Source of the DNA: an uncultured Clostridia bacterium
GTDB taxonomy: Bacteria; Bacillota; Clostridia; UMGS1883; UMGS1540
Assembly: GCA_937966555.1 (NCBI GenBank)
Contig: CALCLY010000036.1
Span: 122,116-186,115 of the forward strand
Direction: 5' to 3'
DNA: 64,000 bases
Below, piece after piece: positions 28,665 through 59,503 of this stretch. The notes beneath the pieces are model-generated. The model was given only the letters and a program-made list of their open reading frames with translations, ran no database searches and was not told the origin of the DNA. The position numbers and the translations under genes are program-made. Every line of letters starts with the position of its first letter. Position 1 is the first letter of the stretch.

Positions 28665-28692
28665 ATTTATATCCTCCTTTTGATGTGATGTT

Positions 28693-30125: not shown

Positions 30126-30140
30126 TCCTCCGTTCTGTAG

Positions 30141-31313
30141 CTATTCAAGCTTATTCGCCTGATTTTTATATTCGTCCTGTATAAATTTCGCGTCCTTGTC
30201 GCTAAGTGCGTTTATAACCGTGCCGAGTGCGTCAAACTGCGCTCTTGTGCAGTGCACCGCAACAGGTTTGCAGGCATATCCGCGCGTCATACGTCCTAAA
30301 TTTTCGTTTTTTACAAGTCCGAGCATAACTTCATAAAGCTCATCCGTATTGAAATAGGTTGCTTTTGCCTTCCATGCGTCATAGTTCTCCTCGGATTTGT
30401 TGATAAAGCTTGTTACGGCTGCCCATGCGGGAACTTTGTCGCTGCCCGGTGTGGTTTTAAAGTAGTCCATCGTGGCTCTGTATGCCGCCTCGCTTGTGTT
30501 TTCGTGTGACGGATAATCATACCACAGCCAAACAAGACCTTTTACACCGCTTGAATGAAGGTCTGCGTCAGCCTCGTTTTTCAGCATTTCCGAGATAGGC
30601 GCAACCACCCTGTCATCACCGAGGAGACCGGCATACTCATACGCTGCCTTCCGAACATCGTTATCCGAATCTTTCATCAGCTCGATTTCCGCATCAACCG
30701 CTCCGTTAAGAGTCTTGTTCCATGTGCTTCCGAGAGCAACCGCCGCCTGCCTTCTTACAACTGCGTTTTCATTCTTTGCCGCATCAAGCAGGAATTTGCC
30801 GATTTCTGCATCCTTGCCGCCTTCATTTCCAAGAGCTTTTACCGCACATTTAATAACATAAGGCTCTTTTTCGGTTTTCAGAATCTCCTTTGCCGACGCT
30901 TTATGCGAATCACTTACCCCGAAAAATGTGGCGATGTTTGAAAAAGCATAGCCTCTTACCTGCGGTGCATCGCTTTTTAAAAGAGGCTCAACAAATTCCT
31001 TTGCCGCAGGGAGTGTTGCCTTGTTATCCTTAAGCTTTTTGATTGCTTTGTCTGTTATATTTTCATCAAGCTCAAGCTTATTGTTGATTGTTGCATATGA
31101 ATATGTGGAAGCAAGATTTACAAATTCGTCCAAGGTTATATTCTGCTCATCTTTAATAAACTCTTTTATCAGATCGTCCTCTGTCATATTTGCGTAGTCA
31201 ATCTTTTTGGTTTCCTGCTTTGTTTCGGTTTCTTTTCCGGTATTTTCACCGCCGCACGCAGCGAGCGAAAATACCATTCCTACAGCTAAAATGAACGCTA
31301 ATATTTTTTTCAT
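30141..31313 (-). CDS. Lipoprotein with HEAT-like (PBS-lyase-type) repeats.
   Basis: Lipobox LAACGG after the signal peptide. Repeats resemble PQVRGYAFSNIA, VRRQAAVALGS and NDVRKAAYEYAG. Confidence 0.55.
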   Translation of the reverse strand: MKKILAFILAVGMVFSLAACGGENTGKETETKQETKKIDYANMTEDDLIKEFIKDEQNITLDEFVNLASTYSYATINNKLELDENITDKAIKKLKDNKATLPAAKEFVEPLLKSDAPQVRGYAFSNIATFFGVSDSHKASAKEILKTEKEPYVIKCAVKALGNEGGKDAEIGKFLLDAAKNENAVVRRQAAVALGSTWNKTLNGAVDAEIELMKDSDNDVRKAAYEYAGLLGDDRVVAPISEMLKNEADADLHSSGVKGLVWLWYDYPSHENTSEAAYRATMDYFKTTPGSDKVPAWAAVTSFINKSEENYDAWKAKATYFNTDELYEVMLGLVKNENLGRMTRGYACKPVAVHCTRAQFDALGTVINALSDKDAKFIQDEYKNQANKLE

Positions 31314-31337
31314 AATATAAAATTCCTCCTGATTCTT

Positions 31338-32663
31338 TTATTGTTTATCATTATCGTCAAATATGTCGCCGCATTCAGGGCAGAATTTCGGCGGATTTTT
31401 GGGATCTTCAGGCTCCCAGCCGCATTTATCGCATTTATAGGTCGGTGCGCCCGCAGGTTTCGGATTCCCACAGTTTTGGCAGAACCTACCCTTGTTGACC
31501 GTTCCGCACGAACACGTCCAGCCGTCGGGCGATGCCTGCGGTTTTCCGCAATTCATACAGAATTTCCCGGTATTGCCCGTCTGACCGCATTCACAGCTCC
31601 AGCCTGCCGCTTGAGGCTGCTGTGCCTGCTGCTGAGACTGCTGTTGCTGCTGACCCATCGCAAAAAGATTGCCCGCATTCATACCGCCTGCATTCTGCGC
31701 CATACTCATTCCGAAAAAGCCGCCCATTGCGCCCATTCCGCCTTCGTTTGCCGCTGCCGTTCTCATAGCGTCTGTCTGCCCGCCGACTATGCGCGCCGCC
31801 GCAATATTCGGATTGGTTGTCATAACGTTTTCTTCCCATTCGGTAATCTTTTTTCTCTGGTCATCCGGGATAGATACACCGTTAATGCTTACGGCAAAGA
31901 GCTCGATTCCGCGCTTTTCCTTCCACTCAACTTTAAGCTCCTCGGAAAGAGCCTTTGTAACCTCTTTTGTATGTGCAGGAATTTCCGAATACATTATTTT
32001 CATTGCCGAAATCTGCGCAAATGCCGGTCTCAGAGCGTCCAAAAGCTCACTCTTTAACATTTCGTCAATTTCCGAACGGCTGTATACATATTCCACATTA
32101 CCGCTTACGTTTGTATAAAACATAACAGGGTCGGCTATTTTATAGGAATACACACCGTTACACCTTAAATCCACCGACAGCTTATAGTTCATCGATTCAT
32201 CTATAGTCACCCTGAATGGCACGGGAGAGGAGGTGCCGAATTTATTGCCGGTAATTTCCTTTGTGTTGAAATAATAAACCCTCTGATCCTTGCCCGGTTC
32301 GCCGCCGAAAGTAAAACGCTTGCCTACCTGCTGAAAGCTTTGTTTAATGCTTTCGCCTAAGTTGCCGCAAAAAATGCTCGGCTCGGTTGAATTATCATAA
32401 ACAAACTCACCCGCCTCGGCGCAAAATTCAACAATTTTGCCCGATTCCACGATAATCATGCTCTGTCCTTCGTTTACCGAAATGATAGAACCGTTTGAAA
32501 TAATGTTGTCGTCTCCCTTTTTGTTGGAGCTTCTTTTTCCCACTCGTTTTTCACCTTTTGCCACAAGTGTGTCGGCATCTAAACTTTCGCAGTAGAAAAA
32601 TTCTCTCCACTGGTCAGCCAAAACACCGCCAAGAGCGCCTGCGCCCGCTTTTAAAAGTCCCAT
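31338..32663 (-). CDS. SPFH/band-7 (flotillin-like, YdjI-type) protein with a Gln-rich linker and four C-terminal zinc-ribbon motifs.
   Basis: 441 aa. The four ribbons are WSCECGQTGNTGKFCMNCG, WTCSCGTVNKGRFCQNCG, YKCDKCGW and FCPECG. The body resembles the B. subtilis YdjI class. Confidence 0.65.
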   Translation of the reverse strand: MGLLKAGAGALGGVLADQWREFFYCESLDADTLVAKGEKRVGKRSSNKKGDDNIISNGSIISVNEGQSMIIVESGKIVEFCAEAGEFVYDNSTEPSIFCGNLGESIKQSFQQVGKRFTFGGEPGKDQRVYYFNTKEITGNKFGTSSPVPFRVTIDESMNYKLSVDLRCNGVYSYKIADPVMFYTNVSGNVEYVYSRSEIDEMLKSELLDALRPAFAQISAMKIMYSEIPAHTKEVTKALSEELKVEWKEKRGIELFAVSINGVSIPDDQRKKITEWEENVMTTNPNIAAARIVGGQTDAMRTAAANEGGMGAMGGFFGMSMAQNAGGMNAGNLFAMGQQQQQSQQQAQQPQAAGWSCECGQTGNTGKFCMNCGKPQASPDGWTCSCGTVNKGRFCQNCGNPKPAGAPTYKCDKCGWEPEDPKNPPKFCPECGDIFDDNDKQ

Positions 32664-32687
32664 AATTCTGTTCTCCTCTCAAAATTT

Positions 32688-33236
32688 TTATTCTTTATAG
32701 TCTGTTATATCCCATATATCGGGTGTACATATCAGCCTGCCGTTTTCATCCGTATCAAGCGTGATTTTGTGTCCGCCGCGTATGACGATATAAATTTCAA
32801 CATTGCCGCCGCAGTTTATTATATACGGTGTGCCGTCATCTGCTTTTTGCAAATTTTTCTTATCGCCGTTTTGAATCAGCTCGTTTTCCTCTCCGTACCG
32901 CGGAATAACAAGATACCATTTTTCTCCGCCGTAATCATAATGACTGATTGCCCGGCGTTTTTCCTCGGAAAGCTCCGAAAAAAGCTTTTCTATATATTCA
33001 TTTGCCGTATTTTTGCCGGTTTCTCCCTCTCCGAGATATGCGACCGCCCAATAGGGATAGTCCTCGATTTCATCGAACGGAAGAGTATTTGCGTATTCTG
33101 TACGATGCTCACTGTCAACATACACCATGCCCGGTCCGTCCAGTATAAAAGGGTTTTCTCCGGGAGCCCTGCATCCGAAAAGACCGGCAATAACCGTAAA
33201 TATCGCAATTGCTTTCATCAGCCTTACCTTAATCAC
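32688..33236 (-). CDS. Putative lipoprotein (182 aa).
   Basis: Signal peptide plus Cys (IAGLFGCRAPG). Confidence 0.5.
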   Translation of the reverse strand: MIKVRLMKAIAIFTVIAGLFGCRAPGENPFILDGPGMVYVDSEHRTEYANTLPFDEIEDYPYWAVAYLGEGETGKNTANEYIEKLFSELSEEKRRAISHYDYGGEKWYLVIPRYGEENELIQNGDKKNLQKADDGTPYIINCGGNVEIYIVIRGGHKITLDTDENGRLICTPDIWDITDYKE

Positions 33237-34426
33237 CCTTTCGGCAATTCAATTCGCATATCGTAGCAAAGAATTCTCGAAATAAGAGCCGCCGCTTCAC
33301 TGCGTTTTACCTGTGAATCCGGATAGAACGCCATGTATTCATTGCTTCCCACTGCGATCCCTTTATTATAAAGATCCAAAATTTCATATGCGAAGGGCGT
33401 TGTGTCATAAACGTCCGGAATATCGGTTATCGGAACATCGTTTATAAAATACGGATTGACGTCGCACCGTGAAAACAGATATGCCATCTGTGCACGCGTT
33501 GCGTTTTTCTCCCAATCGAAGATAATATGATCTTCAAGTATTGCTTTGTCATAGCAATAATCCACATAAACATCATACCAGTTTTCACCGGTCATTTGGA
33601 ATTCAACTTCCTCTCCTTCGTATTGGCTTTTCTTGTGAATTACCGCGGCAATTTTGGCTGCCTCCGCGCAGGTAAGCCCTGCATTCGGGTCAAATTCTCT
33701 TTTGTTTTTCCCGTTTAAGATGCCAAAGCTGTACGCCGTCTGCACATAAGAATAGTACCATGCGTCCGGCGATATGTCCGCAAACGGCAGAGAGGTATTC
33801 TCCAGATATTTGCTTCCTTTAAAACCACAGTCCTCGCAGTATATCATGTTTTCACCGAAAATACCCTTTTCCGTCATACTCTCAACAAGCGCAGTATGCA
33901 TAAGTGAAAAACTAAAATTCCCGTCACCCTTTGCATCGGATATTTTTTCGTACATCACATGCTCATCTGCCGTGCACGGGATATAAAATTGTATAAATCC
34001 GGTTCCGGCAAACACATCAAAATCAAACGTTATTTCCTCTGAATTCAATGTAACCTCATTAAGATTTGCGCAGTTGGCAAAAGCGCGCTCACCAATATTT
34101 TTCACACTTGACGGAATATATGCACTTTCGGCATTGCAGCCTTCAAATGCATTTGTGTTTATCAATTCAATTCCTTCAGCAACGGATATGGCTTCAAGTC
34201 CTAAGTCAAAACAAGCCATAACACCGATTTCATTGATTTTTGTTCCGTCTATTTCTGCCGGGAAAAAGGCAAATTCATCACCGTAATAAGCGGTAATTAC
34301 TCCATCCTTTGTGTATTCATACATACCGTCTGCCGATTTGAATGTTTCCCATTCCGCACTGACAACAGTGCTGCTTAAGATCAGCAGTGCTGCAAGCAAT
34401 AACGATAGTTTTTTCACGTTTTGCAC
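33233..34426 (-). CDS. Secreted protein with BspA-type leucine-rich repeats and SLH-like C-terminal domains.
   Basis: The LRR block reads NAFEGCNAESAYIPSSVKNIGERAFANCANLNEVTL. The SLH-like segment is SPDAWYYSYVQTAYSFGILNG...LTCAEAAKIAAVI. Confidence 0.6.
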   Translation of the reverse strand: MQNVKKLSLLLAALLILSSTVVSAEWETFKSADGMYEYTKDGVITAYYGDEFAFFPAEIDGTKINEIGVMACFDLGLEAISVAEGIELINTNAFEGCNAESAYIPSSVKNIGERAFANCANLNEVTLNSEEITFDFDVFAGTGFIQFYIPCTADEHVMYEKISDAKGDGNFSFSLMHTALVESMTEKGIFGENMIYCEDCGFKGSKYLENTSLPFADISPDAWYYSYVQTAYSFGILNGKNKREFDPNAGLTCAEAAKIAAVIHKKSQYEGEEVEFQMTGENWYDVYVDYCYDKAILEDHIIFDWEKNATRAQMAYLFSRCDVNPYFINDVPITDIPDVYDTTPFAYEILDLYNKGIAVGSNEYMAFYPDSQVKRSEAAALISRILCYDMRIELPKG

Positions 34427-34432
34427 CTCCCG

Positions 34433-35302
34433 CTACTTTATTTTGGCTTCCGCATCGTCCGCGCGTCTTGTGTAAACCGCCATGCCGCCGGTCGCTGCGT
34501 CATTCATAGCATTTATGCCTTCCTTCAGTTTTTCTTTGTCTGCCTCCGTTATGGCTTCCTCACCTTTTGTTGCAGCCTTAAAAGCCGTTCCGAATGCCGC
34601 CGCCATTCCAATCGCTGCCGCATCCTCTCTTTTTTCCGCCTTGCTTCTGCCGAAGCCGAATAACCCTCTTTCGTCATCGTGAACGCCGAAAATATAGTCA
34701 AAATGCTGCTTTGCATTGTGCGCATATTGTACGTCTGAACGATTGTTCTTGCTGAAGCAGATTTTAAGCTCCTGCTTAATATAAGGGTGAGGACGCAGTC
34801 CTTTTTTGTTATCCGTATTCACCCTGCTCATATTTCCGCCCAACAGTTTGATTTTCAAGCCGCAGCCCTTAAACTCGGGCTGTTTGCCCGGCTCGGTTGC
34901 GGGTGTTTCATCTACATATTCCTCATAGCTTGCCACCTGATCGTAGCGGAAAAGCTCTTTCATCTTGCCTCTGCTCGTGTCGCTTCTGTATACAATTCTG
35001 AACATTCCCAGCTCGTCGCAAAATTCAATGCCCATATCATTAAGCGTGGACGGATATGTGCTTTTTTTGCCCTCCTTTGAGTAAACCTCTTCAAACAGTC
35101 TGTTCTGGCGCTTCATGTACTCAATGTGTCCCTTGATTTCGTCAAGCGTAAGCTCGCTTAAACGAATGTATTTTGAACACAGGTTTCCGCATTCGCTGCA
35201 GATAAATTCCTTGTTCTTGATTTTCGAGCGGTGCATCACGCCACACTCTTTGCCGCATAGTGCGCAGGTTTTTTTACCGAAAATATTTTTAAAGAATCCC
35301 AT
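34433..35302 (-). CDS. Zinc-ribbon protein (N-terminal CxxC x2) of unknown function.
   Basis: 289 aa with the motif CALCGKECG...CSECGNLC. Confidence 0.5.
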   Translation of the reverse strand: MGFFKNIFGKKTCALCGKECGVMHRSKIKNKEFICSECGNLCSKYIRLSELTLDEIKGHIEYMKRQNRLFEEVYSKEGKKSTYPSTLNDMGIEFCDELGMFRIVYRSDTSRGKMKELFRYDQVASYEEYVDETPATEPGKQPEFKGCGLKIKLLGGNMSRVNTDNKKGLRPHPYIKQELKICFSKNNRSDVQYAHNAKQHFDYIFGVHDDERGLFGFGRSKAEKREDAAAIGMAAAFGTAFKAATKGEEAITEADKEKLKEGINAMNDAATGGMAVYTRRADDAEAKIK

Positions 35303-35320
35303 TTTTCAACCTCCAATGAT

Positions 35321-36100
35321 TTAATAGCTTCCGCCCCTGCCGCCGTGGGTTTCGCCCGACGACGATGTGTGGGTTCCGGAATTGTTTTTTTGTTTTTCCG
35401 TTTTTGTGACCGTACTGTAAAGAAATATATCCCTTGAATCATGCATATTCATGCTTCCGGGCTTCATGTAATCGGACGCATAATCCTGTTTTACGGCTGT
35501 TTTCATTTTTTCCAGCTGCTTTTTCGTCATGTAATACGCCAGAAGCAGCGGAAGGAGCAGCGCTCCGCCGATTACGCAAAGAAGGTAGCCTAAGGTATAC
35601 TGTTTTTCGTTAAAGATATTGCCGCTGCTTGCCATGCCCAGAAGCTTTTCCGATTGTTCGAAAAACGCCTCTGCCGCGGCATCGAAGTTATCCTCCTTGA
35701 GAAAGGGCAAAACTTGTTTTTCCATATACGCCAAGCCGTTTTTATTAAAATATTTGATACCCTTGCCGTGTGTTGAGAAATGATACGCTCTCGGCATTTC
35801 GGAAATGTAAAGAATAATACCGTCTTTTTCCGCGCCGCAGCCGTAGCCGCCGTAGTCGAAAATATCGTCTGCGCGGCTTTCCGCATCATCGCCCGACATG
35901 TATTCCTCCGTGTATATCGCTACGTCAAAATTGTATTTGCTTCTTATTGCGTCGGCTTTTTTCGAGAGCTTGTCAAATTCGCTTTCCGACAAAAGCTCCG
36001 CCTCGTCCGTAATCGACGGATTTGCAAAATCCGCAAGGGCTCCGAAAGCCGACGTAAGCAAAAGAATAGCCGCCAAAAACGATAAAAGTATTTTTTTCAT
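35321..36100 (-). CDS. TPM-domain (TLP18.3/Psb32/MOLO-1) protein with a C-terminal TM helix and Gly-rich tail. YdjH-like.
   Basis: TDEAELLSESEFDKLSKKADAIRSKYNFDVAIYTEEY...DGIILYIS. The start is trimmed to MKKILLSF (RBS GGAGGCGGCAGGC). Confidence 0.7.
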   Translation of the reverse strand: MKKILLSFLAAILLLTSAFGALADFANPSITDEAELLSESEFDKLSKKADAIRSKYNFDVAIYTEEYMSGDDAESRADDIFDYGGYGCGAEKDGIILYISEMPRAYHFSTHGKGIKYFNKNGLAYMEKQVLPFLKEDNFDAAAEAFFEQSEKLLGMASSGNIFNEKQYTLGYLLCVIGGALLLPLLLAYYMTKKQLEKMKTAVKQDYASDYMKPGSMNMHDSRDIFLYSTVTKTEKQKNNSGTHTSSSGETHGGRGGSY

Positions 36101-36113
36101 GCCTGCCGCCTCC

Positions 36114-37193
36114 TCAGTGTAACAGGAAATATGCAATTACCGCCGCAGCAACGTACGCGATGCCTGCAATTTTCGCAAAATATATGTTTTTCTTCTTTTT
36201 GTCAACGGGGTATTCTCCCACCACCTTGCCCGTCTGCCCGTTTATGGCGAATTTGTACATTGTATTCATGTACTTGATGTTGAGCATCCACACCGGAAGC
36301 AGCGAATATCTGATTTTACCGCCTGAAAAGCTTATTCTCGTGCTTTCGGGAATTACCGCCGCATAGCCGCCCGTGGTTTCACGAAATACCGAAACCGTCG
36401 ATGCCTTGACGCGCTCGTTTGCTCTTTCTATGCTATCCTCCGCCGTAACGTCGTATTTGTCCGCCAGATATCCCGAAAGATACGCTCCGTTAAAAACGAC
36501 GGCGTCCTCGTAATTGAAGGGCTCGACAGCCTCCATATATGCGTTGTCCGCCTTTTTCGAGCCGTCAACGGGGATATTGGCAAAGCCGACGCTGCCGCTT
36601 CTGAAAAGTCTGTAATAATCGGTTTTTGTATAATTGTAGCTCGAATCGCTCCAGCTTGTAACCCTCTGCGCGCTGTATGTAATCGCCGCGTTGCAGTCGC
36701 AGTCAAACATCCAGAACGGTACGTAAACACCTGCCATTTCTTCTATTTTCTTTTTTACCTTAAATTCGTCCGGCAGAAACGGCGCATTTTTAAAATCATC
36801 TTCAAACGCCGCCGTTGCCGCTTTTTTATCCTTTTTGAACGGAATGATGTAATCGGGGCGGAGCGTTCCCTCAAACTGTCCCTTGATTACCGCGGCGTCG
36901 CCGCAATAAGGGCATACGGTAGAGCCCATGGTGTCATCGCCCGTTATTTCAGCGCCGCATGAAGGGCAGGTGTAGCTTGCAAGATCAATTTCTCCGTCCG
37001 CTTCATAATTTCTCGGCTCGTAGCTCTCCCAGTCATATTTTGATTCACCCTGCATTTCGGCGTTCGCATCGTCGATTTGCCGCATAGCGTCAAGCTCAAA
37101 ATTGTTTCCGCAGGAATCGCAGTGCAGCGATTCGTTTTTGAAAACCAGCGCAGCTCCGCAGCAGGGACATTTATAGCTTTGTACAGTTTCCAT
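36114..37193 (-). CDS. Double zinc-ribbon protein with a C-terminal TM anchor. YdjG-like.
   Basis: 359 aa with CPCCGA...CDSCGN and CPSCGA...CPYCGD. Confidence 0.6.
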   Translation of the reverse strand: METVQSYKCPCCGAALVFKNESLHCDSCGNNFELDAMRQIDDANAEMQGESKYDWESYEPRNYEADGEIDLASYTCPSCGAEITGDDTMGSTVCPYCGDAAVIKGQFEGTLRPDYIIPFKKDKKAATAAFEDDFKNAPFLPDEFKVKKKIEEMAGVYVPFWMFDCDCNAAITYSAQRVTSWSDSSYNYTKTDYYRLFRSGSVGFANIPVDGSKKADNAYMEAVEPFNYEDAVVFNGAYLSGYLADKYDVTAEDSIERANERVKASTVSVFRETTGGYAAVIPESTRISFSGGKIRYSLLPVWMLNIKYMNTMYKFAINGQTGKVVGEYPVDKKKKNIYFAKIAGIAYVAAAVIAYFLLH

Positions 37194-37263
37194 TGTTTCC
37201 CTCCTTTTTGCCCGGCCGCTCCCCGTGTCCGTTTTCGGGCAGGGGAGCGGCTGACACTTTTGC

Positions 37264-37653
37264 CTATGCCTTGTTTTTTGCCGCTCCGATTATGTATAAA
37301 ATCGGAACAATCAAACCCGAGGCATAACTCATGATATTGAATTTGCTGCCGACTACGTTTGACATAACGTTTCCGGCTACGCTGAGCAGAGCCACAATAA
37401 CGCCCATAACAAGGCACGCCTGTGCCTTTTCCGGCTTCTCGCAGTTTTTCACGCCCATAATCCCCGCTATCAGCTGGAACACGGCGCCGGCGAGAATAAG
37501 AACACTTGCAAGCGTCAGAGTACCCGTGCTTGTGTCAAGCAGCGCCGCCATTGTTGCCACACTGACAAGAGCGACAATACCTCCGATGATACCGAACGCG
37601 CTGCCGATAATCATCAGAATTCCCGTGACCTTCAAAAATTGCTTTCCTTTCAT
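37264..37653 (-). CDS. Small polytopic membrane protein (4 TM).
   Basis: 129 aa, hydrophobic throughout. Confidence 0.5.
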   Translation of the reverse strand: MKGKQFLKVTGILMIIGSAFGIIGGIVALVSVATMAALLDTSTGTLTLASVLILAGAVFQLIAGIMGVKNCEKPEKAQACLVMGVIVALLSVAGNVMSNVVGSKFNIMSYASGLIVPILYIIGAAKNKA

Positions 37654-37712
37654 ACCGAACCTCCTTTAAAAAATATTTATATCTGTTTTTTCAAAAAGAT
37701 ATGACAAACGTG

Positions 37713-40700
37713 TTATTCCACCGTTACGACATCGCAGAGCGGCTGCATACCTTGGCTTTCGTGTCCCCAGAGCATAAGCTTGTAAACGTATCCGTCGCCG
37801 GGAGTGCCTTTTAAATAGTAATCCTCCCGATTAACATATTTTATAAGGTAATTTACAAGATTTCCGTTTGCGTCATACTTGGCGCTGTGAAGCCTTGCGC
37901 TGCTGTCAGGTGCAAAGCCGATTACGGTGTTAAGCTCTTTGTTGTAGCTGATAAAGGCTGCGTCCTCCGGCGCAATCAGCGCATACCATGCGTTCGGCAC
38001 ATCGCCGGGGTCTGACATGACATACGACAAATCGCTGCTGTTTTTTGCTCCTACGACTTTCATGGGAGAATATTCGCTTTGCGTAAACATCTGCGTAAAT
38101 GCCTTAAAGCTTGTGCCGTTGTAATTTCCCCAATAAATTTCCGTTATGCCGTAAGCAAGCATCGTTTTGCCGTCAAACGCGGTTTTGCAGTCCCTCACGC
38201 TCAGCTTTTCGGCAAGATTTTCGATTTTCGTGGCTTTTATGCCCTTGTCATACGTCAGCTTGCCCGCACCATTGATTGTGAGTGTTCCGCTGCCGTAAAA
38301 AGAAACCTTGCCTCCGCACAGAATACCCACGGCATCTATAGTGTCCGCTTCGATGATACTGTTTCCCATAAGCTCTATGTCAAGGTCGCCGTTTGCATAA
38401 ATTCCGACAGATTCCGCCGTGGCGTAAATCGGATGCGTATCAATATGCGCATTGTTCAGCGTCAGCTTTGCGGGAGACATTGATGTTTCCGGAGTAAAGC
38501 TTACCGCTCCTCCAAACAGCGCCTCGGCATTGTCCTGCGTGATGCTTTCGCCACCCACCGTTATTATAGGTTCGGCAAATACCGCATAAAGCGAAAGCCC
38601 CATAGGTACGAAAACCTCATCTCCCGGCAGATAATCCACCGTTTTGCCGTTTCTGTCGACAGTCCAGCCCAAAAAGCTGTATCCGTTTTTTATCGGACGA
38701 ACATTGGGCAGAATTACTTTATTATACATTTTCATCCGTATGGTTTTATACGGCTGGCTGCCGGCTTCTCTTTTATCGAACAGGAAGAGAACCGTGCTGC
38801 TCTGCATATCGCTTTTTGTAAACGAATTGACAGCAGACGGCTGATATCCGCACTTGGCGCAGGTTTTGCGATACAGCCCGTCTACGGTGTCGGTTGCTTC
38901 TCTTAAAAGCTCATATTTGTAGATGTGTTCTTCGTCCTTCTTGTACGTCACGGTATTTCCGCTCTCATCCTCGTAGCTGCAGCGGCTGCATATAAGGCTG
39001 TGGTTTGTACCGTCCTTCGGGGTGCACGAATCAAATATATGCCTTACAGAGTGACTGACAAGGTTGCCGTTTACCCCTTTTGTAACTTCTTCGCCGTTTA
39101 CCTTTACAACGCATCTGTATGTTTCGCTTTCCGGCATCCTGTTTGTTATGACAAATCCCGGCGTCTCATAGCCGACAAACATGCCGACGCCTACCCCATA
39201 ATCAACAAGCTGTTTTATGCTGATAAACGCCGAATCCTGTTTAAGCTGCCAGTCATATGTAACCGTTGCCCCCTCGGGCGCGCACACCTTGATGTGGAAT
39301 GCGGCGCTCCTGTCACACTCCGTAACAACCTTGTCTGTAAGGTTTTCGATAAAGGGCGCGGTTTCCGTTCTCCCGATATGCACCGGAAGATATTTGCTCT
39401 CGTCGCCCGACGTCACCGTCAGCGTAAAGCTTTTTTCCTCCGTTGCCGCGGACGGGTAAACGCCGGTGATATAACGATTGCCTGTGATTGAAAGCCCGTA
39501 AGCTGCAAATTCCGCATCGCCCGTCACCGTATAGCTGTCGGCACAGCTTATATAATTTTTCAAATCAACATTGATGGAAGATCCCGAAACACCTGCCGGA
39601 ATTTCGACGGGCTTCAGGTTATATACTTTAAACTCCGAAGCTTCCGCGCAAGTATATTCACGTCCGATGTATATGTCCCTTGAAGGCTTGGAAAGATGAT
39701 TCTCAACGGAGACATCGTTTATATACAGCTTTGTTTCCGCCGTAAACCAGGCGTCACCCGTGGCTTTTTCATAGGCGCCGTATTCGTATACGGTATTTTC
39801 GGTATATTCCTCCAATAAGCTGTATTCGGCTTCTCCCGCAAACAGCGCGTTTTGTGCCTCATTGTCCGAAATAATATTCCCGTCATCGTCTTCATAACTC
39901 TGCATTACGGTATACTCCGATGTTCCGAGAGGATAAAAAACGGGTTTTCTGCCCGGCATCGGCTCGATATTGTAAAGCCGCAGCTCTTTTATTATCGGCT
40001 TCCATTGCGCGTAGATTGTCGTATCCTTATTATATACCCTGCCGAGGTCAACCCGTTCGCCGCCTTCGGGCTCGGTATACCAACCCTCAAGATAAAACCC
40101 TTCTCTGTTGATAACGGTGTGGTCATAATGTAAACTCATAATCGTTCCGTCAATCCCCGTCTGCATCTCAAGCGTTGCGGCGCCGGCAGCGCCCACAAAG
40201 CTGCCGCCGTTTGTGTCAAGCGTTATCGTGTTTGGCTTCGGACTTTTGATTGTGTATTCGAACGTAACGCTCGGTTTGTTCACTCCCACGGTGCTTTTTC
40301 TTATCGCTCTCGGCGGCGCGCCGTCCGTCAGCAGTATCTGAGTATTCCGACTCATGCCGAAGCCTTCCTCAAAATCAAACGTCACCGTCAGCGTGCAGCG
40401 GGTTGTGTTTTTAAAACTCGTTGCATTGACATAGCTTTTTTTAATGGGGTCATATACCTTCCATTTAATCCCCCATATGCTGTAAGGTCTGCCGGCAGAC
40501 ACCTTTACCGCCTGCGTCAGCTCCTCTACCGAGCTGTTTGGCCCGGGCTGCTGCACGCCCATAAGCTCAAGCGAATCCAAATAATTCTTCCTAACTCCTT
40601 CGGTGCACAGATTTTTTGTTTTTATATACAGATACCCGGCATAATAGTCTATGTTTTCTTGCGGCACAGGCTCATCGTCAATATAAAACGCGGTACTGCT

Positions 40701-41033
40701 GTTTACCACATAATTTCCGTTTTTGATGATCACTTTAAAACGGTAATAATACTCTGTGCCGCTGTCAAACGGGTCATAATTTGAACTCAGCTTTGCATCG
40801 TCGCAAGCCCTGTACCACTTTCCCTCATCAATCTTTAATATCTCGTCGGAACCGGGACAGGTTAATTTAACAGGCGCTGCTTTGACGCCTTTCTTAATGC
40901 TTACCTCGCTCATCCCCTCAAACCTCACTTCGGGTATAACGGTTTGAGCCGCAAGCGTTGTCTGCGGCAAAACGCCCAAAAGCACTGCCGCGCAAAGAAC
41001 AGCCGAAAAAAGCCTGCCCTTTTTTATTTTCAT
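37713..41033 (-). CDS. Large secreted protein (1106 aa) with Flg_new-type repeats. Function unknown.
   Basis: The start is trimmed to MKIKKGRLFSAVLCAAVLLGVLPQTTLAAQT (RBS GGAGCT). Flg_new repeats read LEGWYTEPEGGERVDLGRVYNKDTTIYAQW and LGWTVDRNGKTVDYLPGDEVF. Confidence 0.7.
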   Translation of the reverse strand: MKIKKGRLFSAVLCAAVLLGVLPQTTLAAQTVIPEVRFEGMSEVSIKKGVKAAPVKLTCPGSDEILKIDEGKWYRACDDAKLSSNYDPFDSGTEYYYRFKVIIKNGNYVVNSSTAFYIDDEPVPQENIDYYAGYLYIKTKNLCTEGVRKNYLDSLELMGVQQPGPNSSVEELTQAVKVSAGRPYSIWGIKWKVYDPIKKSYVNATSFKNTTRCTLTVTFDFEEGFGMSRNTQILLTDGAPPRAIRKSTVGVNKPSVTFEYTIKSPKPNTITLDTNGGSFVGAAGAATLEMQTGIDGTIMSLHYDHTVINREGFYLEGWYTEPEGGERVDLGRVYNKDTTIYAQWKPIIKELRLYNIEPMPGRKPVFYPLGTSEYTVMQSYEDDDGNIISDNEAQNALFAGEAEYSLLEEYTENTVYEYGAYEKATGDAWFTAETKLYINDVSVENHLSKPSRDIYIGREYTCAEASEFKVYNLKPVEIPAGVSGSSINVDLKNYISCADSYTVTGDAEFAAYGLSITGNRYITGVYPSAATEEKSFTLTVTSGDESKYLPVHIGRTETAPFIENLTDKVVTECDRSAAFHIKVCAPEGATVTYDWQLKQDSAFISIKQLVDYGVGVGMFVGYETPGFVITNRMPESETYRCVVKVNGEEVTKGVNGNLVSHSVRHIFDSCTPKDGTNHSLICSRCSYEDESGNTVTYKKDEEHIYKYELLREATDTVDGLYRKTCAKCGYQPSAVNSFTKSDMQSSTVLFLFDKREAGSQPYKTIRMKMYNKVILPNVRPIKNGYSFLGWTVDRNGKTVDYLPGDEVFVPMGLSLYAVFAEPIITVGGESITQDNAEALFGGAVSFTPETSMSPAKLTLNNAHIDTHPIYATAESVGIYANGDLDIELMGNSIIEADTIDAVGILCGGKVSFYGSGTLTINGAGKLTYDKGIKATKIENLAEKLSVRDCKTAFDGKTMLAYGITEIYWGNYNGTSFKAFTQMFTQSEYSPMKVVGAKNSSDLSYVMSDPGDVPNAWYALIAPEDAAFISYNKELNTVIGFAPDSSARLHSAKYDANGNLVNYLIKYVNREDYYLKGTPGDGYVYKLMLWGHESQGMQPLCDVVTVE

Positions 41034-41154
41034 ACAATTCAGCTCCTTTTTTCTTTCGGCGCGCGGCAGCTGCCGCGCTCCTACTGCTTTTTTTATGATT
41101 GTTTCTCCGTCGGCCGGGCCGCAAAATGCCGTAAGCCCGACTTGCATATTGGTT

Positions 41155-44100
41155 TTATGAGCCTGTTATTTTCAGTCTTGCCGAAGGCAAAAGAGGTTTT
41201 ATGTTCTTGTCATAGTTAAACATAAACGCTCTTATCTCATCCGCATCCGAAATATTCAGCTCAAGGGTGCCGACGGAAGCGTCGAGTACCGGCATATCCA
41301 TTTGGCGGATAAATTCTCTTTTTATGTCAATCATCCGTCCGTTTTTGTAGCTTGCTATCCAAATATAGGCAGAGAGTCCGCCGTTGGAAGCGTGGATGCA
41401 ATACTCACCGTTTTTCTCGAACAGCTGCAAGACAGGTTTTTCGGTAAGCTTCGGAAGCGTTACATCCTCTTCGTAAAGGCATACGGAGCAGACATGATGG
41501 CCGATTCCTTCCTCGGTCAAAGTCGGTTTTTTGGGAAATACCATCTGATTGTAGCGGTGAGGAATCACGCGGAGCTTTTCGGAGCAGTCCGGACTCTCGC
41601 ATTCCAGCCAGTGACTTGTTTCGTCGTGCTCATATGAACTGTTGACAAAGGAACAGACATGCGTCAACGCTGCTATCGGCGCGGTTTGTTCGTTCCAGCA
41701 GCCGGCTTGCGAGCAGATGCGTTTCTTAAGGCCCGGCGCAGCTGCTGTCGGTGCCGTAACGGTCACCCAGTCGCTGTATGTATGGCGAACATAGGAGTTG
41801 TCGGAACGTCCGCAAGCTTCGTCGGAGCAAGTATTCCAGTGCGCAATGTTGTCATGCGCCACCACGGTGAAGCTGTGCGTATGCGGTGCGGAAAGCTTGG
41901 GAATGCTCTGCTTCTGCCTTGTTAAGCCGCAGTCGGCACAGTAATAGGTCTGCTCGCCCTCGGCGTCAACCGTAGGCTCCTTGGTGGTTTTCCAATAACC
42001 CGGTGTGTGCGACTGCAAATAAAATTCTTCGTAACAGTTTTTGCACAGTACCATATGTCTGTCTGTCCGACTGCCTGTATATGCCACACTATTTCTGTAC
42101 TCATAAGACGAGGTGTCATGCTGAGGAATAATGCGAATCGGATTGGACTGCGCCGTGCCGCCGTCGCCGGTAACAACGCAGACAAACATGAATTCATCCT
42201 CATATCGCAAAACCTCGCCGCACATGGCGTCATACAGCCCAACGGTCAGCGTATCGGTTTTTGTGCCCGCATGACCGTTTTCGGGGTGTTCCTCTATGTC
42301 GGGAACTTTATACAACTTAACATCTCCGTTGGCATCGTAATAAGCGTTGTACCACTGATAAGTAAGATTGTTGCCGCGCGCCTTGACCGAAAGCTTTACG
42401 AAGTTGTCGTCGCGTCCGTGTCTGTAGGTCGGCTTTATTTCGGCAGGCGACTGCCATGTGATGCGCACGGGGCGGATCCTTCCGCAGGCAACGCAGGAGT
42501 CGCCGTGGCGCCAGTCGTGTGCGCCGATATTCACGCGCTTGCCGCCGTCGGGGCAATCAGAATTGGAGCAGATCTTCCAATGCTGCGTTTCGTTCATCTG
42601 CCACTCATCCGTTTCGTGCGGCAGGTTGATAAAGAACCGCACGTCGCTGTTGTAGTATGCCTCATAATTTCCAAGCTCGTTATGTGCGCGCAGGATAAAT
42701 TCGTATCTGCCGCACTGACCGTACAAGTGCTTGAACAGACGTTGGCACTGCGGCTCCTGTAAATCCAAAATAACGCTGTCTTTGGTATAGGTTACCAGCT
42801 GCTGGGCATACATATTCCAAAACGGCGTGCTCTGCTGCGGATTTATCTTCATCCCCGTTTCGGGGTCGATAATCGACATCTTTACATTTTCGCCGCATAG
42901 CAGCGTATATGGAATTACCAGTTTTTCACCGAATATCGCCGTAAATTCGTCCGCAGCGTAATATTTTTCTTTGCCGTTGACATATGTAACGTAGTCCCAT
43001 TCAAGATCTTTGCCGCCGACCGTATCAATTGCCGGCGCGGCAATTTTCTTATAATAACAGTTCAAAGCGCCGCAGGCATAGGGGTTCTTCGAGAAATCGT
43101 GCGTTGTTTTTGTGCTGGCTTTTACATCGCCGCAAAGGCTGCATTGCCTCCAGTGATGCGTTGCGTTATACGCCAGCACTTCACTGCCTTCGCACGTTCC
43201 GTTTACGCAGGCGGACGAAACACTGCTTGTTTTTCTCAAAAAGTATCCGCAGTCAAGGCAGTTGGAATGTATGATTGCAATAGGTTTTCCGAAAACTTCG
43301 GAAAAGTTTTCACGAACCCATTCTCCGAATCTGTGTCTGTTTTGGTTCATCGCCATACCGCAAATGGTACAGGTCTGATAATGTCTGTTGACGTCCCCCT
43401 GTACATAGGTGCTTCCCGGCGTATGCGTATGTGCGCCGTGGGAGCATTTCGAGAAGCAGGTTCCGTGCGATGTGCAATAGTGGTCGACCCATTTCGGGTC
43501 GCTCGGACATATGTCGTTTCCGCAGGAGCAGGGCGTTGCCGCCTTGCAGCAGACAAGGCACTTGCCGCAGTATTGGCACATCTCGCCGGGCGCAAAGCAC
43601 TTATTGCACGTTTTGCAGAAATGCTTGCTCCAGCCCGAGGAGCCCGGGCAAACGTGTGTATGCGTGCATTGCTCCTCCTCGCGCATCTGATTGCAGCAGC
43701 CGGCACAGCCGCCGCAGATGTTACACAAAACCTCTACACAGCCGCCGTGTTCCTCGCAGTAATGGCTTCTCCATTCGCTTCCTTCTATACATATGCCGTG
43801 TTCGCAGCCCAGAAAATCTGCGTTGCTTAAACAGCAATTCAGACAGTAGCCGCAGTCAGGGCAAAACTCATTATCCTCAAAACAGTTGCCGCAGTTGCCG
43901 CAGCGGTGGGTATCCGCGTCCCACTCCGTGCTTTCAACGCATATGCCGTGGTCGCAGCCATTCCTCTGACTTTCGTTAAGGCAGCACTCTGCGCAAAGGC
44001 TGCAGTCATCACACATCTCATCTTCTTCAAAGCAGTTTTCGCAGGATTGGCAGCGGTGAGAATAATCGTCCCAGTCGCTGCTTTCCACGCATATATCGTG

Positions 44101-45135
44101 GTAGCAGCCGTTTTCTTCGCTGGTTCTGCGGCAGCATTCCTCGCATTTTTCGCATTCGTAGCAGAAATTTTCGCACGAGCTGCAGTAATCTCCGCAATCA
44201 GAGCAAAGTATGTAGCCTTCGTAGTTACACTGATTACAGTTTTCACAAATCCACTCCCAGCACTTGTCGCAGTGATCCCCGTCCTCGCAGCGTCTGCCAT
44301 ATTCTTCGGGGCAAGCGCCGCAGTTGGGGCAAATATCGCTCGGCTCCCAGTCGCAGCAAAAGCCGCAGCTGCCGCAGCTTTGGCAGATTCTGTCGTCTTT
44401 TTCGGCGCAATTTTCGCACATTTCGCAGGTATCGTGGTATTCATATGCACAGCTGTTACATTCCGTACAGTGATCATCCAGCCAGCAATCCCTACACCTA
44501 TCGCATTCCCGGCAGATGACGCCGTCCGTAACACAGTTGTTGCACTTTTCGCAACCTTTACAGAAATCGTCCTCCGATTTACATTGGTTGCAGGCTGACA
44601 AACAATCCTGGCAAACGATTTCCAGACAGCAGCCGAGAGTTGCGCGGCAGGTCTTGCACATATCCTCCTCCTCAAACCCTCCGCTCCCGTAAAGGCAGGT
44701 CAGACACTCGTCGCAGTACGGGCACATGGCGCCGTTCGTCCGGCGGCAGTCTTCGCATACATTACAGCCGCTGCAAATGTCTCTGCCGCATTCTCCGCAA
44801 TACCTGCAGTGGTCGTTTTCGCCGCATTCGATACAATTCCAGCATTCGGTGCAGTATTGGTTTTCGCTCAAATCGTTAAAGCATGCGCCGCAGCTGTGGC
44901 AATGAGTGATTTCAAAACAGTCGCTTCTGCAGTCCTCCGTACAGCGGCCGCAGTTTCCGCAGCAATAGCTGTCCCAATGATAGTGACCGCAGCTTCCGCA
45001 GTTCTGACCGTCGGAATAGTCTGCAAATGCCGTAAAGCTGAAAATGGCTGCTAAAAGGACAACGGCAAAAAGAATAACGGCAAAAAGAACAACGGCATGT
45101 TTCACATGATTTCTTTTCATAATCTTCATAATCAA
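41155..45135 (-). CDS. Giant cysteine-rich secreted/anchored protein (1326 aa). A ~550-aa N-terminal region is packed with CxxC/CxxCxxC(xxxC) clusters and ~50-aa GC-H-IC...W...H-C repeats. Then come HW-x2-C-x4-C motifs and Ig-like regions.
   Basis: N-terminal TM/signal HAVVLFAVILFAVVLLAAIFSFTAFA. The Cys clusters include CGNCGRCTEDC, CRYCGECGRDIC, CKGCEKCNNC and CRECDRCRDC. Four tandem ~50-aa repeats of the type NGC(Y/D)H(D/G)ICVES..W....H.C..C.NCF...E.C..C..C..CC are present. Confidence 0.75.
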   Translation of the reverse strand: MIMKIMKRNHVKHAVVLFAVILFAVVLLAAIFSFTAFADYSDGQNCGSCGHYHWDSYCCGNCGRCTEDCRSDCFEITHCHSCGACFNDLSENQYCTECWNCIECGENDHCRYCGECGRDICSGCNVCEDCRRTNGAMCPYCDECLTCLYGSGGFEEEDMCKTCRATLGCCLEIVCQDCLSACNQCKSEDDFCKGCEKCNNCVTDGVICRECDRCRDCWLDDHCTECNSCAYEYHDTCEMCENCAEKDDRICQSCGSCGFCCDWEPSDICPNCGACPEEYGRRCEDGDHCDKCWEWICENCNQCNYEGYILCSDCGDYCSSCENFCYECEKCEECCRRTSEENGCYHDICVESSDWDDYSHRCQSCENCFEEDEMCDDCSLCAECCLNESQRNGCDHGICVESTEWDADTHRCGNCGNCFEDNEFCPDCGYCLNCCLSNADFLGCEHGICIEGSEWRSHYCEEHGGCVEVLCNICGGCAGCCNQMREEEQCTHTHVCPGSSGWSKHFCKTCNKCFAPGEMCQYCGKCLVCCKAATPCSCGNDICPSDPKWVDHYCTSHGTCFSKCSHGAHTHTPGSTYVQGDVNRHYQTCTICGMAMNQNRHRFGEWVRENFSEVFGKPIAIIHSNCLDCGYFLRKTSSVSSACVNGTCEGSEVLAYNATHHWRQCSLCGDVKASTKTTHDFSKNPYACGALNCYYKKIAAPAIDTVGGKDLEWDYVTYVNGKEKYYAADEFTAIFGEKLVIPYTLLCGENVKMSIIDPETGMKINPQQSTPFWNMYAQQLVTYTKDSVILDLQEPQCQRLFKHLYGQCGRYEFILRAHNELGNYEAYYNSDVRFFINLPHETDEWQMNETQHWKICSNSDCPDGGKRVNIGAHDWRHGDSCVACGRIRPVRITWQSPAEIKPTYRHGRDDNFVKLSVKARGNNLTYQWYNAYYDANGDVKLYKVPDIEEHPENGHAGTKTDTLTVGLYDAMCGEVLRYEDEFMFVCVVTGDGGTAQSNPIRIIPQHDTSSYEYRNSVAYTGSRTDRHMVLCKNCYEEFYLQSHTPGYWKTTKEPTVDAEGEQTYYCADCGLTRQKQSIPKLSAPHTHSFTVVAHDNIAHWNTCSDEACGRSDNSYVRHTYSDWVTVTAPTAAAPGLKKRICSQAGCWNEQTAPIAALTHVCSFVNSSYEHDETSHWLECESPDCSEKLRVIPHRYNQMVFPKKPTLTEEGIGHHVCSVCLYEEDVTLPKLTEKPVLQLFEKNGEYCIHASNGGLSAYIWIASYKNGRMIDIKREFIRQMDMPVLDASVGTLELNISDADEIRAFMFNYDKNIKPLLPSARLKITGS

Positions 45136-45419
45136 ATCGCCTCTCTTTCATGAATTTGCTTTGCTCCGCACATGGGGCAATACTCCGCATCATTAGGGAG
45201 AACATTTTCACATTTGGTGCAGCAACGATGCTTTGCTCTGTAAATATCAAAAACTGTTTCCTCCGGCAGTTTTGTCTGACAAACTTTGCAAAACTTGTTT
45301 TTTGCAGCCTGCGCATTTCCGCAGCACGGGCAGATTTTAAACCTTTTCATATTTTGGGTGCCAAAACCGAAATGCTCCAAAACATCTTTTCTTAACGGTC
45401 TATATCTCGTCACTCTCAT
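45132..45419 (-). CDS. Small double zinc-ribbon protein.
   Basis: CPCCG...CKVC and CTKC...CPMCG. The start is trimmed to avoid a 56-nt overlap, so it is uncertain. Confidence 0.45.
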   Translation of the reverse strand: MRVTRYRPLRKDVLEHFGFGTQNMKRFKICPCCGNAQAAKNKFCKVCQTKLPEETVFDIYRAKHRCCTKCENVLPNDAEYCPMCGAKQIHEREAI

Positions 45420-45873
45420 CAGCTCCTCCATATAATAGTTTTTTGCCGCATACAAAGCAAATTATATCTCCGTTTTTTGCTTTTGCGCCGCAGTGCTTGC
45501 AATACTTTGCTTCTTCCTCAAGAGGAGCACAATTCACGCACATAAGCATATCCGGATTATATACAATCGAATCAACCCATCTGCCGCACAAGTGGCATAA
45601 ATTAAAATTTTTCTTGCCCTCCGCTTCCCATGCCGCCGAAAGCTCTGCCTCGAAATCGTCTGCATAATACTTTCCTGTGGTACAGACAAGCTTTCCCGAC
45701 AATTCACAGAAAAAGCTGTAACGGTTTCCGCCATGTGACGGAATAATTTTGTATGCAGCCGTTTTATGCTTCTCATTTATCATACGCCTCGCCTCCTCTC
45801 TGAAAAACTTATAAACCCGTTTCTTTTGCACAAACCTACGCAAATTATCCGCAAGCCGTTGACTAATTGCCAA
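45400..45873 (-). CDS. Zinc-ribbon protein (157 aa). It is the first gene of the co-directional envelope cluster.
   Basis: CHLCG...CVNC and CKHCG...CFVCG. Confidence 0.5.
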   Translation of the reverse strand: MAISQRLADNLRRFVQKKRVYKFFREEARRMINEKHKTAAYKIIPSHGGNRYSFFCELSGKLVCTTGKYYADDFEAELSAAWEAEGKKNFNLCHLCGRWVDSIVYNPDMLMCVNCAPLEEEAKYCKHCGAKAKNGDIICFVCGKKLLYGGADESDEI

Positions 45874-46086
45874 AAATGTGATATACTTGTGATGGATAAA
45901 TCTGCTAAAAAGGAACCCGTCTTTTTATTTAAGAAACTGCGATTACTTTATAATAGGTTGAAACACATACGTAAAAGAACGCCTCTTTATCTTTTTTTTG
46001 CAGATAATTCTTTCCGGTGCTGCAAATTGTTGTTTTTACATGTTTTCATTATACATAAAAATATCTTTTTGTCCCCATACTTTTTG

Positions 46087-59411: not shown

Positions 59412-59503
59412 TGGCGGAGAAGGAGAGATTCGAACTCTCGCACCGGTTTCCCAGCCTACTCCCTTAGCAGGGGAGCCCCTTCGACCTACTTGGGTACTTC
59501 TCC
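59412..59503 (-). tRNA. tRNA-Ser (anticodon GCU).
   Basis: 92 nt on the minus strand. The acceptor stem is GGAGAAG/CTTCTCC with discriminator G and CCA, the anticodon loop is CTGCTAA, and there is a long variable arm. Confidence 0.85.

Follow-up and report, generated by a model that had tools for sequence, protein, structure and literature searches.

The 64,000-nucleotide stretch of DNA analysed here (the window), from an uncultured Clostridia bacterium (contig CALCLY010000036.1, positions 122,116 to 186,115), carries on its minus strand a gene for a large exported protein with an extreme density of cysteines. The initial annotation of this gene had noted the Cys clusters and suggested metal or Fe-S cluster binding, electron transfer or a disulfide-knotted scaffold as their role. 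We describe the gene, its product and the family of the protein, and argue that the Cys-rich N-terminal module is probably an extracellular array of predicted Cys/His metal sites. The gene and the parts of this module are as follows.

41155–45135, minus strand: complete Cys-rich gene, 1326 residues from a TTG start, stop included; likely 1324 residues from the ATG at 45129
45022–45135, minus strand: Sec-type signal peptide, residues 1–38, predicted cleavage AFA/DY, read from the sequence
44116–45021, minus strand: region A, residues 39–340, 71 Cys, delimited by Cys spacing; 70 of the 71 Cys conserved in orthologs
43966–44115, minus strand: repeat 1, residues 341–390, 10 Cys + 2 His (hidden Markov model (HMM) domain E 1.2e-17)
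43816–43965, minus strand: repeat 2, residues 391–440, 10 Cys + 2 His (HMM domain E 1.4e-18)
43681–43815, minus strand: repeat 3, residues 441–485, 9 Cys + 3 His (HMM domain E 8e-16)
43534–43680, minus strand: repeat 4, residues 486–534, 10 Cys + 3 His (HMM domain E 3.8e-17)
43381–43533, minus strand: degenerate repeat 5, residues ~535–585, 5 Cys + 6 His (partial HMM match, E 3e-8)

The gene, its export signal and its Cys-rich module

The open reading frame (ORF) at 41155–45135 begins with TTG and runs on the minus strand without interruption over 1326 codons' worth of protein; the ATG two codons further on, which follows a Shine-Dalgarno-like GAAAGAGAGG, is the likelier start. Orthologs of 1317–1322 amino acids with 84–86% amino acid identity are present in at least two independent human-gut metagenome-assembled genomes (MAGs), L001 and L002, and because these are full-length we consider the query frame intact; the frameshift artefact of which the initial annotation had warned was not found. 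Matching ortholog fragments occur in several further MAGs, and the MAGs with ortholog sequence include a complete chromosome labelled Clostridiales and contigs labelled Oscillospiraceae. The Cys residues are conserved at 147 of 149 positions in L001 and 148 of 149 in L002, while identity at non-Cys positions is ~0.83–0.84. Moreover, across 18 homologs with 32–81% identity to the query, the invariant alignment columns are all Cys or His.

Nei-Gojobori Ka/Ks values against three orthologs are 0.19–0.24 overall and 0.11–0.18 in the repeat region (range 0.11–0.28), and the gene is under purifying selection. As Ka/Ks is low in the annotated frame, that frame is the coding one, and the overlapping ORFs of 182–278 amino acids in the other frames of both strands within 41155–45135 are by-products of codon periodicity, as had been supposed from the start. 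That several other frames are open for 180–280 codons is what could be said for a non-functional gene, either a compositional or repeat artefact or a pseudogene. This explanation has a practically negligible probability given the in-frame Ka/Ks of 0.11–0.28 and near-perfect Cys conservation, the full-length orthologs in at least two independent MAGs with hundreds of metagenome sequences besides, and the signal peptide and domain architecture common to more than 100 relatives. One ortholog ORF, at 9842–13498 of the complete MAG chromosome L003 (CP091729.1), is shortened to about 1218–1225 amino acids and followed by fragments; the L003 DNA aligns over the entire Cys-rich gene at 90.6%, and the shortening is probably an assembly frameshift and not a true pseudogene.

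The protein is exported, as predicted earlier. We assigned the leader type (Sec or Tat) by eye from the query and homolog N-termini: the query leader has a K/R-rich n-region, MIMKIMKRNHVKH, a hydrophobic core and then AFA/DY, and the ortholog leaders are of the textbook Sec type MKKFLSL...AFA/DYSDGQNC. No clear twin-arginine motif was seen in the query or in the homolog N-termini inspected, which bear MKK-type Sec leaders; a loose RRx## pattern falls within the first 45 residues of 15 of 121 family sequences. The mature N-terminus (residues 39–57, window 44965–45021, minus strand) starts DYSDGQNCGSCGHYHWD. The pattern x[DY][YE]xDGxxCxxCGx[YF]x[WY] is found at the mature N-terminus of 28 of the 121 family sequences, distant members among them, and this conserved free motif might be a functional site.

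The full 1326-residue protein has 149 Cys, 67 CxxC, 32 CxxCxxC and no CxxCH. The estimate that its N-terminal ~550 residues are one-fifth Cys proved accurate, as Cys makes up 21.1% of residues 41–600 (23.7% of residues 41–340 and 18.1% of 341–600); the figures for two large neighbouring surface proteins are 1.7% and 0.4%. Residues 41–600 hold 118 Cys and 24 His, with 61 CxxC and 15 CxxCG, and are strongly acidic (D+E 101 vs K+R 36); successive Cys are most often separated by two residues, a spacing that accounts for 61 of the gaps ahead of residue 600. The strings quoted in the initial annotation are present, CGNCGRCTEDC at residue 59, CKGCEKCNNC at 192 and CRECDRCRDC at 208. Region A is built, over residues 46–340, of ~11 short sub-repeats of the form (H)CxxCxxC-x5-7-CxxCxxCxxC, which match the repeat HMM weakly, over its positions ~14–44 (the C-terminal half). 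The four tandem repeats already recognised were recovered with HMM domain E-values of 1e-16 to 1e-18, and to these we add a degenerate fifth, which overlaps the first HW/HY unit of the C-terminal half of the protein. Repeat 3 reads HxCxxHxxC instead of HxCxxCxxC, a Cys-to-His swap at a ligand column, and in query repeats 1–3 the sum of Cys and His is exactly 12.

Ligand statistics and predicted fold of the repeat

To describe the repeat quantitatively we used 237 non-identical, near-full-length copies from the family. Eleven columns of the resulting profile are at least 79% Cys or His, one of them being a His column at 95%, and the twelfth has the composition H46/C20/D14/E11, all metal-ligand residues. 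His is the chief substitute at the near-invariant Cys columns. The sum of Cys and His is 12 in 144 of the 237 copies and 11–13 in 89%, the commonest compositions being 10C+2H, 11C+1H and 9C+3H, and the Cys and His counts per copy are anticorrelated (r=-0.55). Moreover, of the 49 copies without Cys at column 24, 28 have Cys at column 26 (against 11 of the other 188), and of the 59 copies with Asp or Glu at column 4, 40 have His at column 26, compared with 0 of 110 with His at column 4. Ligands change place instead of vanishing. Since there are twelve ligands per repeat, three tetrahedral sites are predicted in each. A Gly follows the first knuckle in 74% and the second in 47% of the profile, and three hydrophobic or aromatic columns are conserved: W/Y at 13, F at 25 and L at 36.

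These counts bear directly on the possibility of a disulfide-knotted extracellular scaffold, in which intra- and inter-repeat disulfides would build a cross-linked, protease-resistant coat and the His and acidic residues would be incidental. Parallels are the EGF/furin-like repeats, and such a role has partly been proposed for the Giardia variant-specific surface proteins (VSPs). The protein is extracellular and extremely Cys-rich, it could become oxidised close to the mucosa or once excreted, an odd Cys could pair with one in another repeat or another molecule, and DsbA/VKOR-type enzymes are known in some Clostridia (PMC12453122). However, the Cys number is odd in 141 of the 237 copies (59%), which does not fit an all-disulfide unit, and yet Cys+His holds at 12; the His column is 95% conserved, and Cys-to-His exchange, its reverse and His relocation are the chief changes at ligand columns. 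The hosts, moreover, are strict gut anaerobes, and no thiol-oxidoreductase gene was found in the window or related loci. Four independent lines of sequence statistics favour predicted metal ligation over disulfides, and a disulfide scaffold is distinctly unlikely.

Structure prediction with AlphaFold2 (AF2) on a two-repeat construct (residues 325–449, 48 repeat-pair sequences) gave a pLDDT of 89.6 and a pTM of 0.71, with each modelled repeat consisting of short beta-bridge knuckles and one 10-residue helix; in the whole-module model the repeats have pLDDT values of 75–87. A Foldseek search with the repeat model returned nothing significant (best E 0.38). The weak list is made up nearly entirely of zinc fingers (RBR, RING, PHD, LIM, FYVE, PARP and GATA); it contains no ferredoxin, rubredoxin, EGF or knottin folds and one Fe-S-related entry, the HscB co-chaperone, matched over 25 columns. 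A PDB sequence search yielded no match with the whole protein or with the 48-sequence repeat profile, and no significant family for the whole protein emerged from Pfam-A or NCBIfam scans, in agreement with the earlier view that no named Cys-repeat family is involved. Because of the model, the Foldseek list and the Pfam matches of relatives (below), the repeat fold is best placed with the metal-knuckle type, outside any recognisable solved family; no described family or solved fold significantly matches the repeat array. The repeat is predicted to be a zinc-finger-like metal-knuckle mini-domain with three sites per ~45 residues, strung into long extracellular tandem arrays.

Metal sites of this kind might alternatively be redox-active, as rubredoxin-type Fe(Cys)4 or Fe-S centres in an electron conduit or in a surface shield that scavenges oxygen or reactive oxygen species (ROS). 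The CxxCG knuckles are a rubredoxin signature, relatives match RUBY_RBDX and PknG_rubred, and three sites per ~45 residues could bring the centres close enough together for electron transfer; under the anoxic conditions of the gut, Fe(II) is soluble. Seven CxxCxxCxxxC strings are also present, but all derive from CxxCxxCxxCC, and the protein has no CxxCxxCxxxCP, no CxxCH and no Fer4-type match at E<=1 in Pfam or NCBIfam. The initial statement that CP is absent is literally incorrect, as there are seven CP dipeptides, but it stands in the sense that matters, none lying in a CxxCxxCxxxCP context. Among the fold matches there was no ferredoxin or rubredoxin structure, and the (beta-alpha-beta)2 fold was not encountered. 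A Sec-type leader, in place of a Tat leader, implies that the chain is exported unfolded and would have to acquire its cofactor outside the cell, which counts against Fe-S clusters, and the loci examined offer no redox partner genes (flavin, quinone, hydrogenase or cytochrome) in the vicinity. Such sites usually hold Zn(II), which normally outcompetes Fe(II) at Cys4 sites (Irving-Williams series). We judge a redox role very unlikely. The same low expectation applies to ~35 iron-loaded sites acting as a chain of rubredoxin-like centres, either a heme-free conduit or a sacrificial oxygen/ROS shield, which if true would parallel multiheme cytochrome wires functionally on a wholly different principle. 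Two specific candidates, a multiheme cytochrome (0 CxxCH among 67 CxxC) and a 4Fe-4S ferredoxin of the Fer4 type, were rejected; the initial annotation had rightly set aside both, together with SPASM domains.

The sites could also form a surface-displayed metal buffer that captures, stores or detoxifies thiophilic metals (Zn, Cu, Cd) and does not serve to build a rigid structure; in function this would be a wall-associated counterpart of metallothionein or of the streptococcal polyhistidine-triad (Pht) proteins. The ligand density of residues 41–600 is very high, the module is strongly acidic, and the repeat number varies (45 to 205 Cys across the family), as expected if capacity matters; a precedent is set by the surface Zn-binding Pht proteins (PMC3842936). 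In contrast, the conserved W/Y, F and L columns and the confident ordered fold point to structural and not labile sites, the examined loci contain no linked gene for a metal transporter or metalloregulator, and the protein has none of the features of metallothioneins (CxC motifs, small size, absence of aromatics and His). A buffering role is unlikely.

The C-terminal half, the wider family and the gene neighbourhood

A motif scan of the C-terminal half identified five bipartite units, each following the pattern H(W/Y)xxC..C ... H ... W ... (PT....G).....CxxC. These and the other features of this half are listed below; all but the last, which has no Pfam match, come from the motif scan.

43216–43419, minus strand: HY/HW..C..C + C..C zinc-ribbon-like unit a, residues 573–640
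43036–43191, minus strand: HW..C..C unit b, residues 649–700
42460–42618, minus strand: HW..C....C unit c, residues 840–892
41896–42054, minus strand: zinc-ribbon-like C..C ... W..KEPT....G.....C..CG.....IPKL, residues 1028–1080
41680–41877, minus strand: HW..C....C unit d, residues 1087–1152
41440–41649, minus strand: HW..C....C unit e, residues 1163–1232
41158–41439, minus strand: Cys-poor C-terminal domain, ~94 amino acids, residues 1233–1326

The HWxxCxxxxC motif reported initially is present at residues 852, 1099 and 1175, and residues 585 and 661 begin the variant form HW/HYxxCxxC; the Ig-like segments reported with it were hardly recovered, the PKD match in the query having E=0.18 and homologs giving weak I-set/Ig_7 matches. 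The Cys-poor C-terminal region is duplicated in the homologs P0002/P0003. No dedicated Pfam model covers the HW..C..CG ... H ... W ... PT....G.....C..CG unit. Relatives rich in HW..C units cumulatively match Pfam TFIIB Zn_Ribbon, RUBY_RBDX, PknG_rubred (1e-45) and FYVE, and the unit seems to be another zinc-ribbon repeat that is extracellular, widespread and as yet without a name. Unit a corresponds to profile positions 428–509 (query ~573–640) and stands alone, in 6–14 copies, in many other large proteins; proteins carrying stand-alone HW..C units are P0151, P0174, P0191, P0201 and P0221.

The initial annotation had implied that the protein is unique, which does not agree with our searches. 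A word-indexed search gave 148 relatives, and a profile search of 1.84 billion cluster representatives gave 1,867 at E<=1e-3, 456 at E<=1e-10 and 114 at E<=1e-30; the ortholog clusters P0001 and P0002 contain 197 and 499 metagenome sequences, respectively. All 120 relatives inspected have the same layout, a signal peptide and an N-terminal Cys-rich block (230–800 residues, 45–205 Cys) followed by Cys-poorer domains, and repeat number is highly variable between members. Many homologs end in an SLH triplet (P0005 and P0026, for example), a dockerin or Big_2/Flg_new/CHB_HEX_C domains. Given this layout, with the Cys-rich module N-terminal and the anchors of relatives C-terminal, the module is extracellular and lies at the end most distant from the wall anchor. 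The family consists of large surface proteins, mostly from gut and rumen Clostridia, publicly named 'hypothetical protein', 'Ig-like domain-containing protein' or 'S-layer homology domain-containing protein [Agathobaculum hominis]'. By homology, the protein is a member of a sizeable unannotated surface-protein family and not a one-off.

In the literature on Cys-rich/CXXC and Clostridia surface proteins we found no description of the family; a published 'CxxC binding protein' operon is unrelated to it. Two further candidate classes were considered and rejected. A SCIFF/ranthipeptide RiPP precursor does not fit a 1326-residue protein with a signal peptide and no radical SAM gene in the cluster or related loci. 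Spore-coat and exosporium Cys-rich proteins do not fit either, as they are produced inside the mother cell and lack signal peptides, while members of this family possess Sec leaders and anchors of the SLH or dockerin type. On contig JAEEGK010000160.1 (L011), the homolog P0029 (8001–12800) lies beside the Bacteroidota-type genes GldH_lipo, CotH and GH43, and one cluster member is labelled Bacteroidaceae bacterium; the family may reach beyond Clostridia, or the L011 MAG may be mis-binned.

In the window the gene lies within a minus-strand gene run (cluster ~26000–46000) with a G+C content of 45–52%, the flanks having 37–42%; the elevated value may be partly due to Cys/Gly/Ala-rich coding. Two small genes precede it.

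45132–45455, minus strand: small double-zinc-ribbon ORF, likely ~72 amino acids from MKRFKICPCCG..., upstream of the Cys-rich gene
45400–45873, minus strand: 157-residue zinc-ribbon protein (Pfam DZR / Zn_ribbon_3, just under cutoff), syntenic in L009

The stop of the double-zinc-ribbon ORF overlaps the start of the Cys-rich gene, which suggests translational coupling, and a 93-residue DZR gene occupies the equivalent position ahead of P0004, a 44%-identical ortholog. Promoter-like sites at 46075–46048 and 45873–45844 precede the 157-residue ORF, making it the probable first gene of the transcription unit. On the downstream side, co-transcription is suggested by the 7 bp from the Cys-rich stop to the next start and the lack of a terminator-like site between them. 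The genes that follow encode a 1144-residue Flg_new protein, a 359-residue zinc-ribbon protein, TPM, DUF4428, LRR_5+SLH, SPFH and HEAT proteins and a 1112-residue Flg_new+SLH protein; the neighbouring SLH genes lie at 25470–28808 and 33233–34426. This gene order, without the 1144-residue gene, also flanks P0004 and the L001 ortholog; synteny is confined to the close lineage. Neither the window cluster nor the loci of three relatives contain redox, Fe-S-assembly, Dsb or metal-transport genes, and BLASTP revealed no paralogy with the adjacent 1144-residue surface protein.

The 1144-residue Flg_new gene (37713–41147, minus strand) is absent from L001, which has ~350 bp instead, and L003 and L005 hold different sequence in its slot; the segment 37208–41163, flanked by conserved genes, has the appearance of a site at which surface-protein genes vary. 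Further zinc-ribbon proteins are encoded among the surface genes at 36114–37193 and 34433–35302; together with the two upstream ones they carry ribbons of cytoplasmic type (DZR, Zn_ribbon_3, DUF4428). Elsewhere the window contains a complete type I restriction-modification system on the minus strand (HsdR 15050–18082, HsdS 18086–20026, HsdM 20023–21795) with an ATPase_2/DUF234 gene after HsdM (21821–23209, minus strand), and three tRNA-Ser genes at 14018–14109 (plus strand), 59412–59503 (minus) and 59533–59619 (minus), with anticodons CGA, GCT and TGA, which are the sole Rfam matches at gathering score in the window.

Interpretation of the Cys-rich module

Among the roles initially proposed for the Cys residues, metal binding is the one upheld by the ligand statistics and the best-supported on sequence grounds, while Fe-S/electron transfer and a pure disulfide knot are disfavoured. 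We favour, with moderate confidence, an extracellular array of predicted Cys/His metal sites. The protein would be a Sec-exported cell-surface protein of a human-gut Oscillospiraceae/Clostridia bacterium, and after cleavage at AFA/DY its N-terminal ~550 residues would fold round metal ions and not round a hydrophobic core. Each ~45–50-residue repeat would arrange its 12 Cys/His ligands into three tetrahedral sites, made of rubredoxin/zinc-ribbon-type CxxC(G) knuckles plus one short helix, and the region preceding the repeats would be composed of shorter units with 7–8 ligands apiece. Altogether ~35 sites would be formed, most likely occupied by Zn(II) acquired in the anoxic, reducing gut lumen, which would also keep the thiolates of the module reduced. 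Folded in this way, the module would be a beaded rod, compact and strongly acidic, and probably also rigid and resistant to proteases. In the C-terminal half that follows, five zinc-ribbon-like HW..C..C units alternate with Cys-poor, possibly beta-rich segments. As most relatives' C-termini bear SLH or dockerin anchors, the Cys-rich module would be distal to the wall. The analysis establishes the sequence features, their conservation, the family, its extracellular architecture, the ligand arithmetic and a confident fold model; from these we infer metal binding by the ligands, zinc as the metal and a structural role (stalk, coat or tip). A rod or tip is favoured because the leader is Sec-type, Fe-S and heme motifs are lacking, the neighbours include no redox, Dsb or metal-transport genes, and Zn is the usual occupant.

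Several observations weigh against this interpretation. The AF2 model of residues 36–620, from an 18-sequence alignment, is of moderate quality (pLDDT 67.8, pTM 0.30), and its region 39–340 is poorly modelled (pLDDT 45–79). The grouping into four-ligand sites and their occupancy by metal are predictions, indirectly supported by the ligand arithmetic and the Cys/His interchange, and sequence does not discriminate between Zn, Fe(II) and other thiophilic metals. Cys4 zinc sites in arrays, moreover, belong essentially to the inside of cells. A Pfam-A scan and sequence inspection recognised no SLH, dockerin or LPxTG anchor in the query, leaving no wall anchor to indicate where the protein resides after export. 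Finally, the loci of more distant relatives have no shared neighbours, and none that point to function.

The best functional analogy is the CXXC-rich surface coat of Giardia and other protozoa. Metal binding is documented for the Giardia VSPs, and the protease resistance of Giardia CXXC-rich surface proteins is lost on chelation or reduction and regained with metal (PMC6341118). Like the Giardia VSPs (PF03302), members of the query family are extracellular proteins with many CXXC from a gut organism (anoxic or micro-oxic), and their length varies by motif number. However, PF03302 has no match in the query at E<=1 in the Pfam-A scan. The query differs in its conserved His and strict 12-ligand repeat, and it is bacterial, Sec-exported and without a C-terminal transmembrane helix and cytoplasmic tail, its C-terminus (...PLLPSARLKITGS) lacking any hydrophobic helix of that kind; relatives use SLH or dockerin domains instead. 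The Cys content of Giardia VSPs is ~12%, and that of the query module, at 21%, is about twice as high.

With the zinc-ribbon and rubredoxin domains (for example the TFIIB Zn-ribbon PF08271, the rubrerythrin rubredoxin-like PF21349 and the PknG rubredoxin domain PF16919) the query shares paired CxxC(G) knuckles and beta-hairpins, which appear in the model as beta-bridge pairs; the query itself matches none of these models at E<=1, the matches being confined to relatives. Those domains have one four-ligand site and are cytoplasmic, whereas the query has three predicted interleaved sites per ~45 residues, in tandem and extracellular. The RING, RBR/IBR, FYVE, PHD and LIM domains are the sole solved folds that at all resemble the repeat model. 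Such cross-brace zinc fingers are small domains that have a short helix and are held together by a pair of interleaved Zn(Cys/His)4 sites; the eight ligands, family spacing and significant fold similarity that mark the RING, FYVE and PHD families were not found in the repeat. The SLH- and dockerin-anchored surface proteins of Clostridia have the same architecture as the family, from the signal peptide and a functional or variable N-terminal module through Ig-like/Flg_new/Big_2 spacers to an SLH triplet or dockerin at the C-terminus, but a Cys-rich N-module is no described component of them, and the query lacks the anchor domain. Metallothioneins likewise combine a very high Cys density with a high metal-to-protein ratio, which for the query is predicted. 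They are, however, small and cytosolic, with bridging CxC/CC thiolates, no aromatics, mostly no His and no repeat fold, unlike the exported 1326-residue query with its W/Y/F/L positions, His ligands, CxxC spacing and predicted helices.

Structural Cys zinc sites are a hallmark of intracellular proteins, and extracellular proteins are normally stabilised by disulfides. If confirmed, the family would be evidence that strict anaerobes assemble large proteins outside the cell from densely packed metal-thiolate mini-domains, at about one metal for every 15 residues. This would be an alternative means of stabilisation where disulfide chemistry is unavailable, and a bacterial counterpart to the CXXC-rich coats found on gut protozoa. 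Because oxidation of the thiolates would set the metal free and cause the module to unfold, a mechanism of oxygen sensitivity is also suggested, and a compact, protease-resistant scaffold derived from the module might find biotechnological use. Members of the family, which is entirely unannotated, are common in metagenomes of the human gut and the rumen; a definition of the family would give a name to a domain so far concealed in hundreds of 'hypothetical' surface proteins and would flag a potentially large pool of zinc (or iron) at the bacterial surface.

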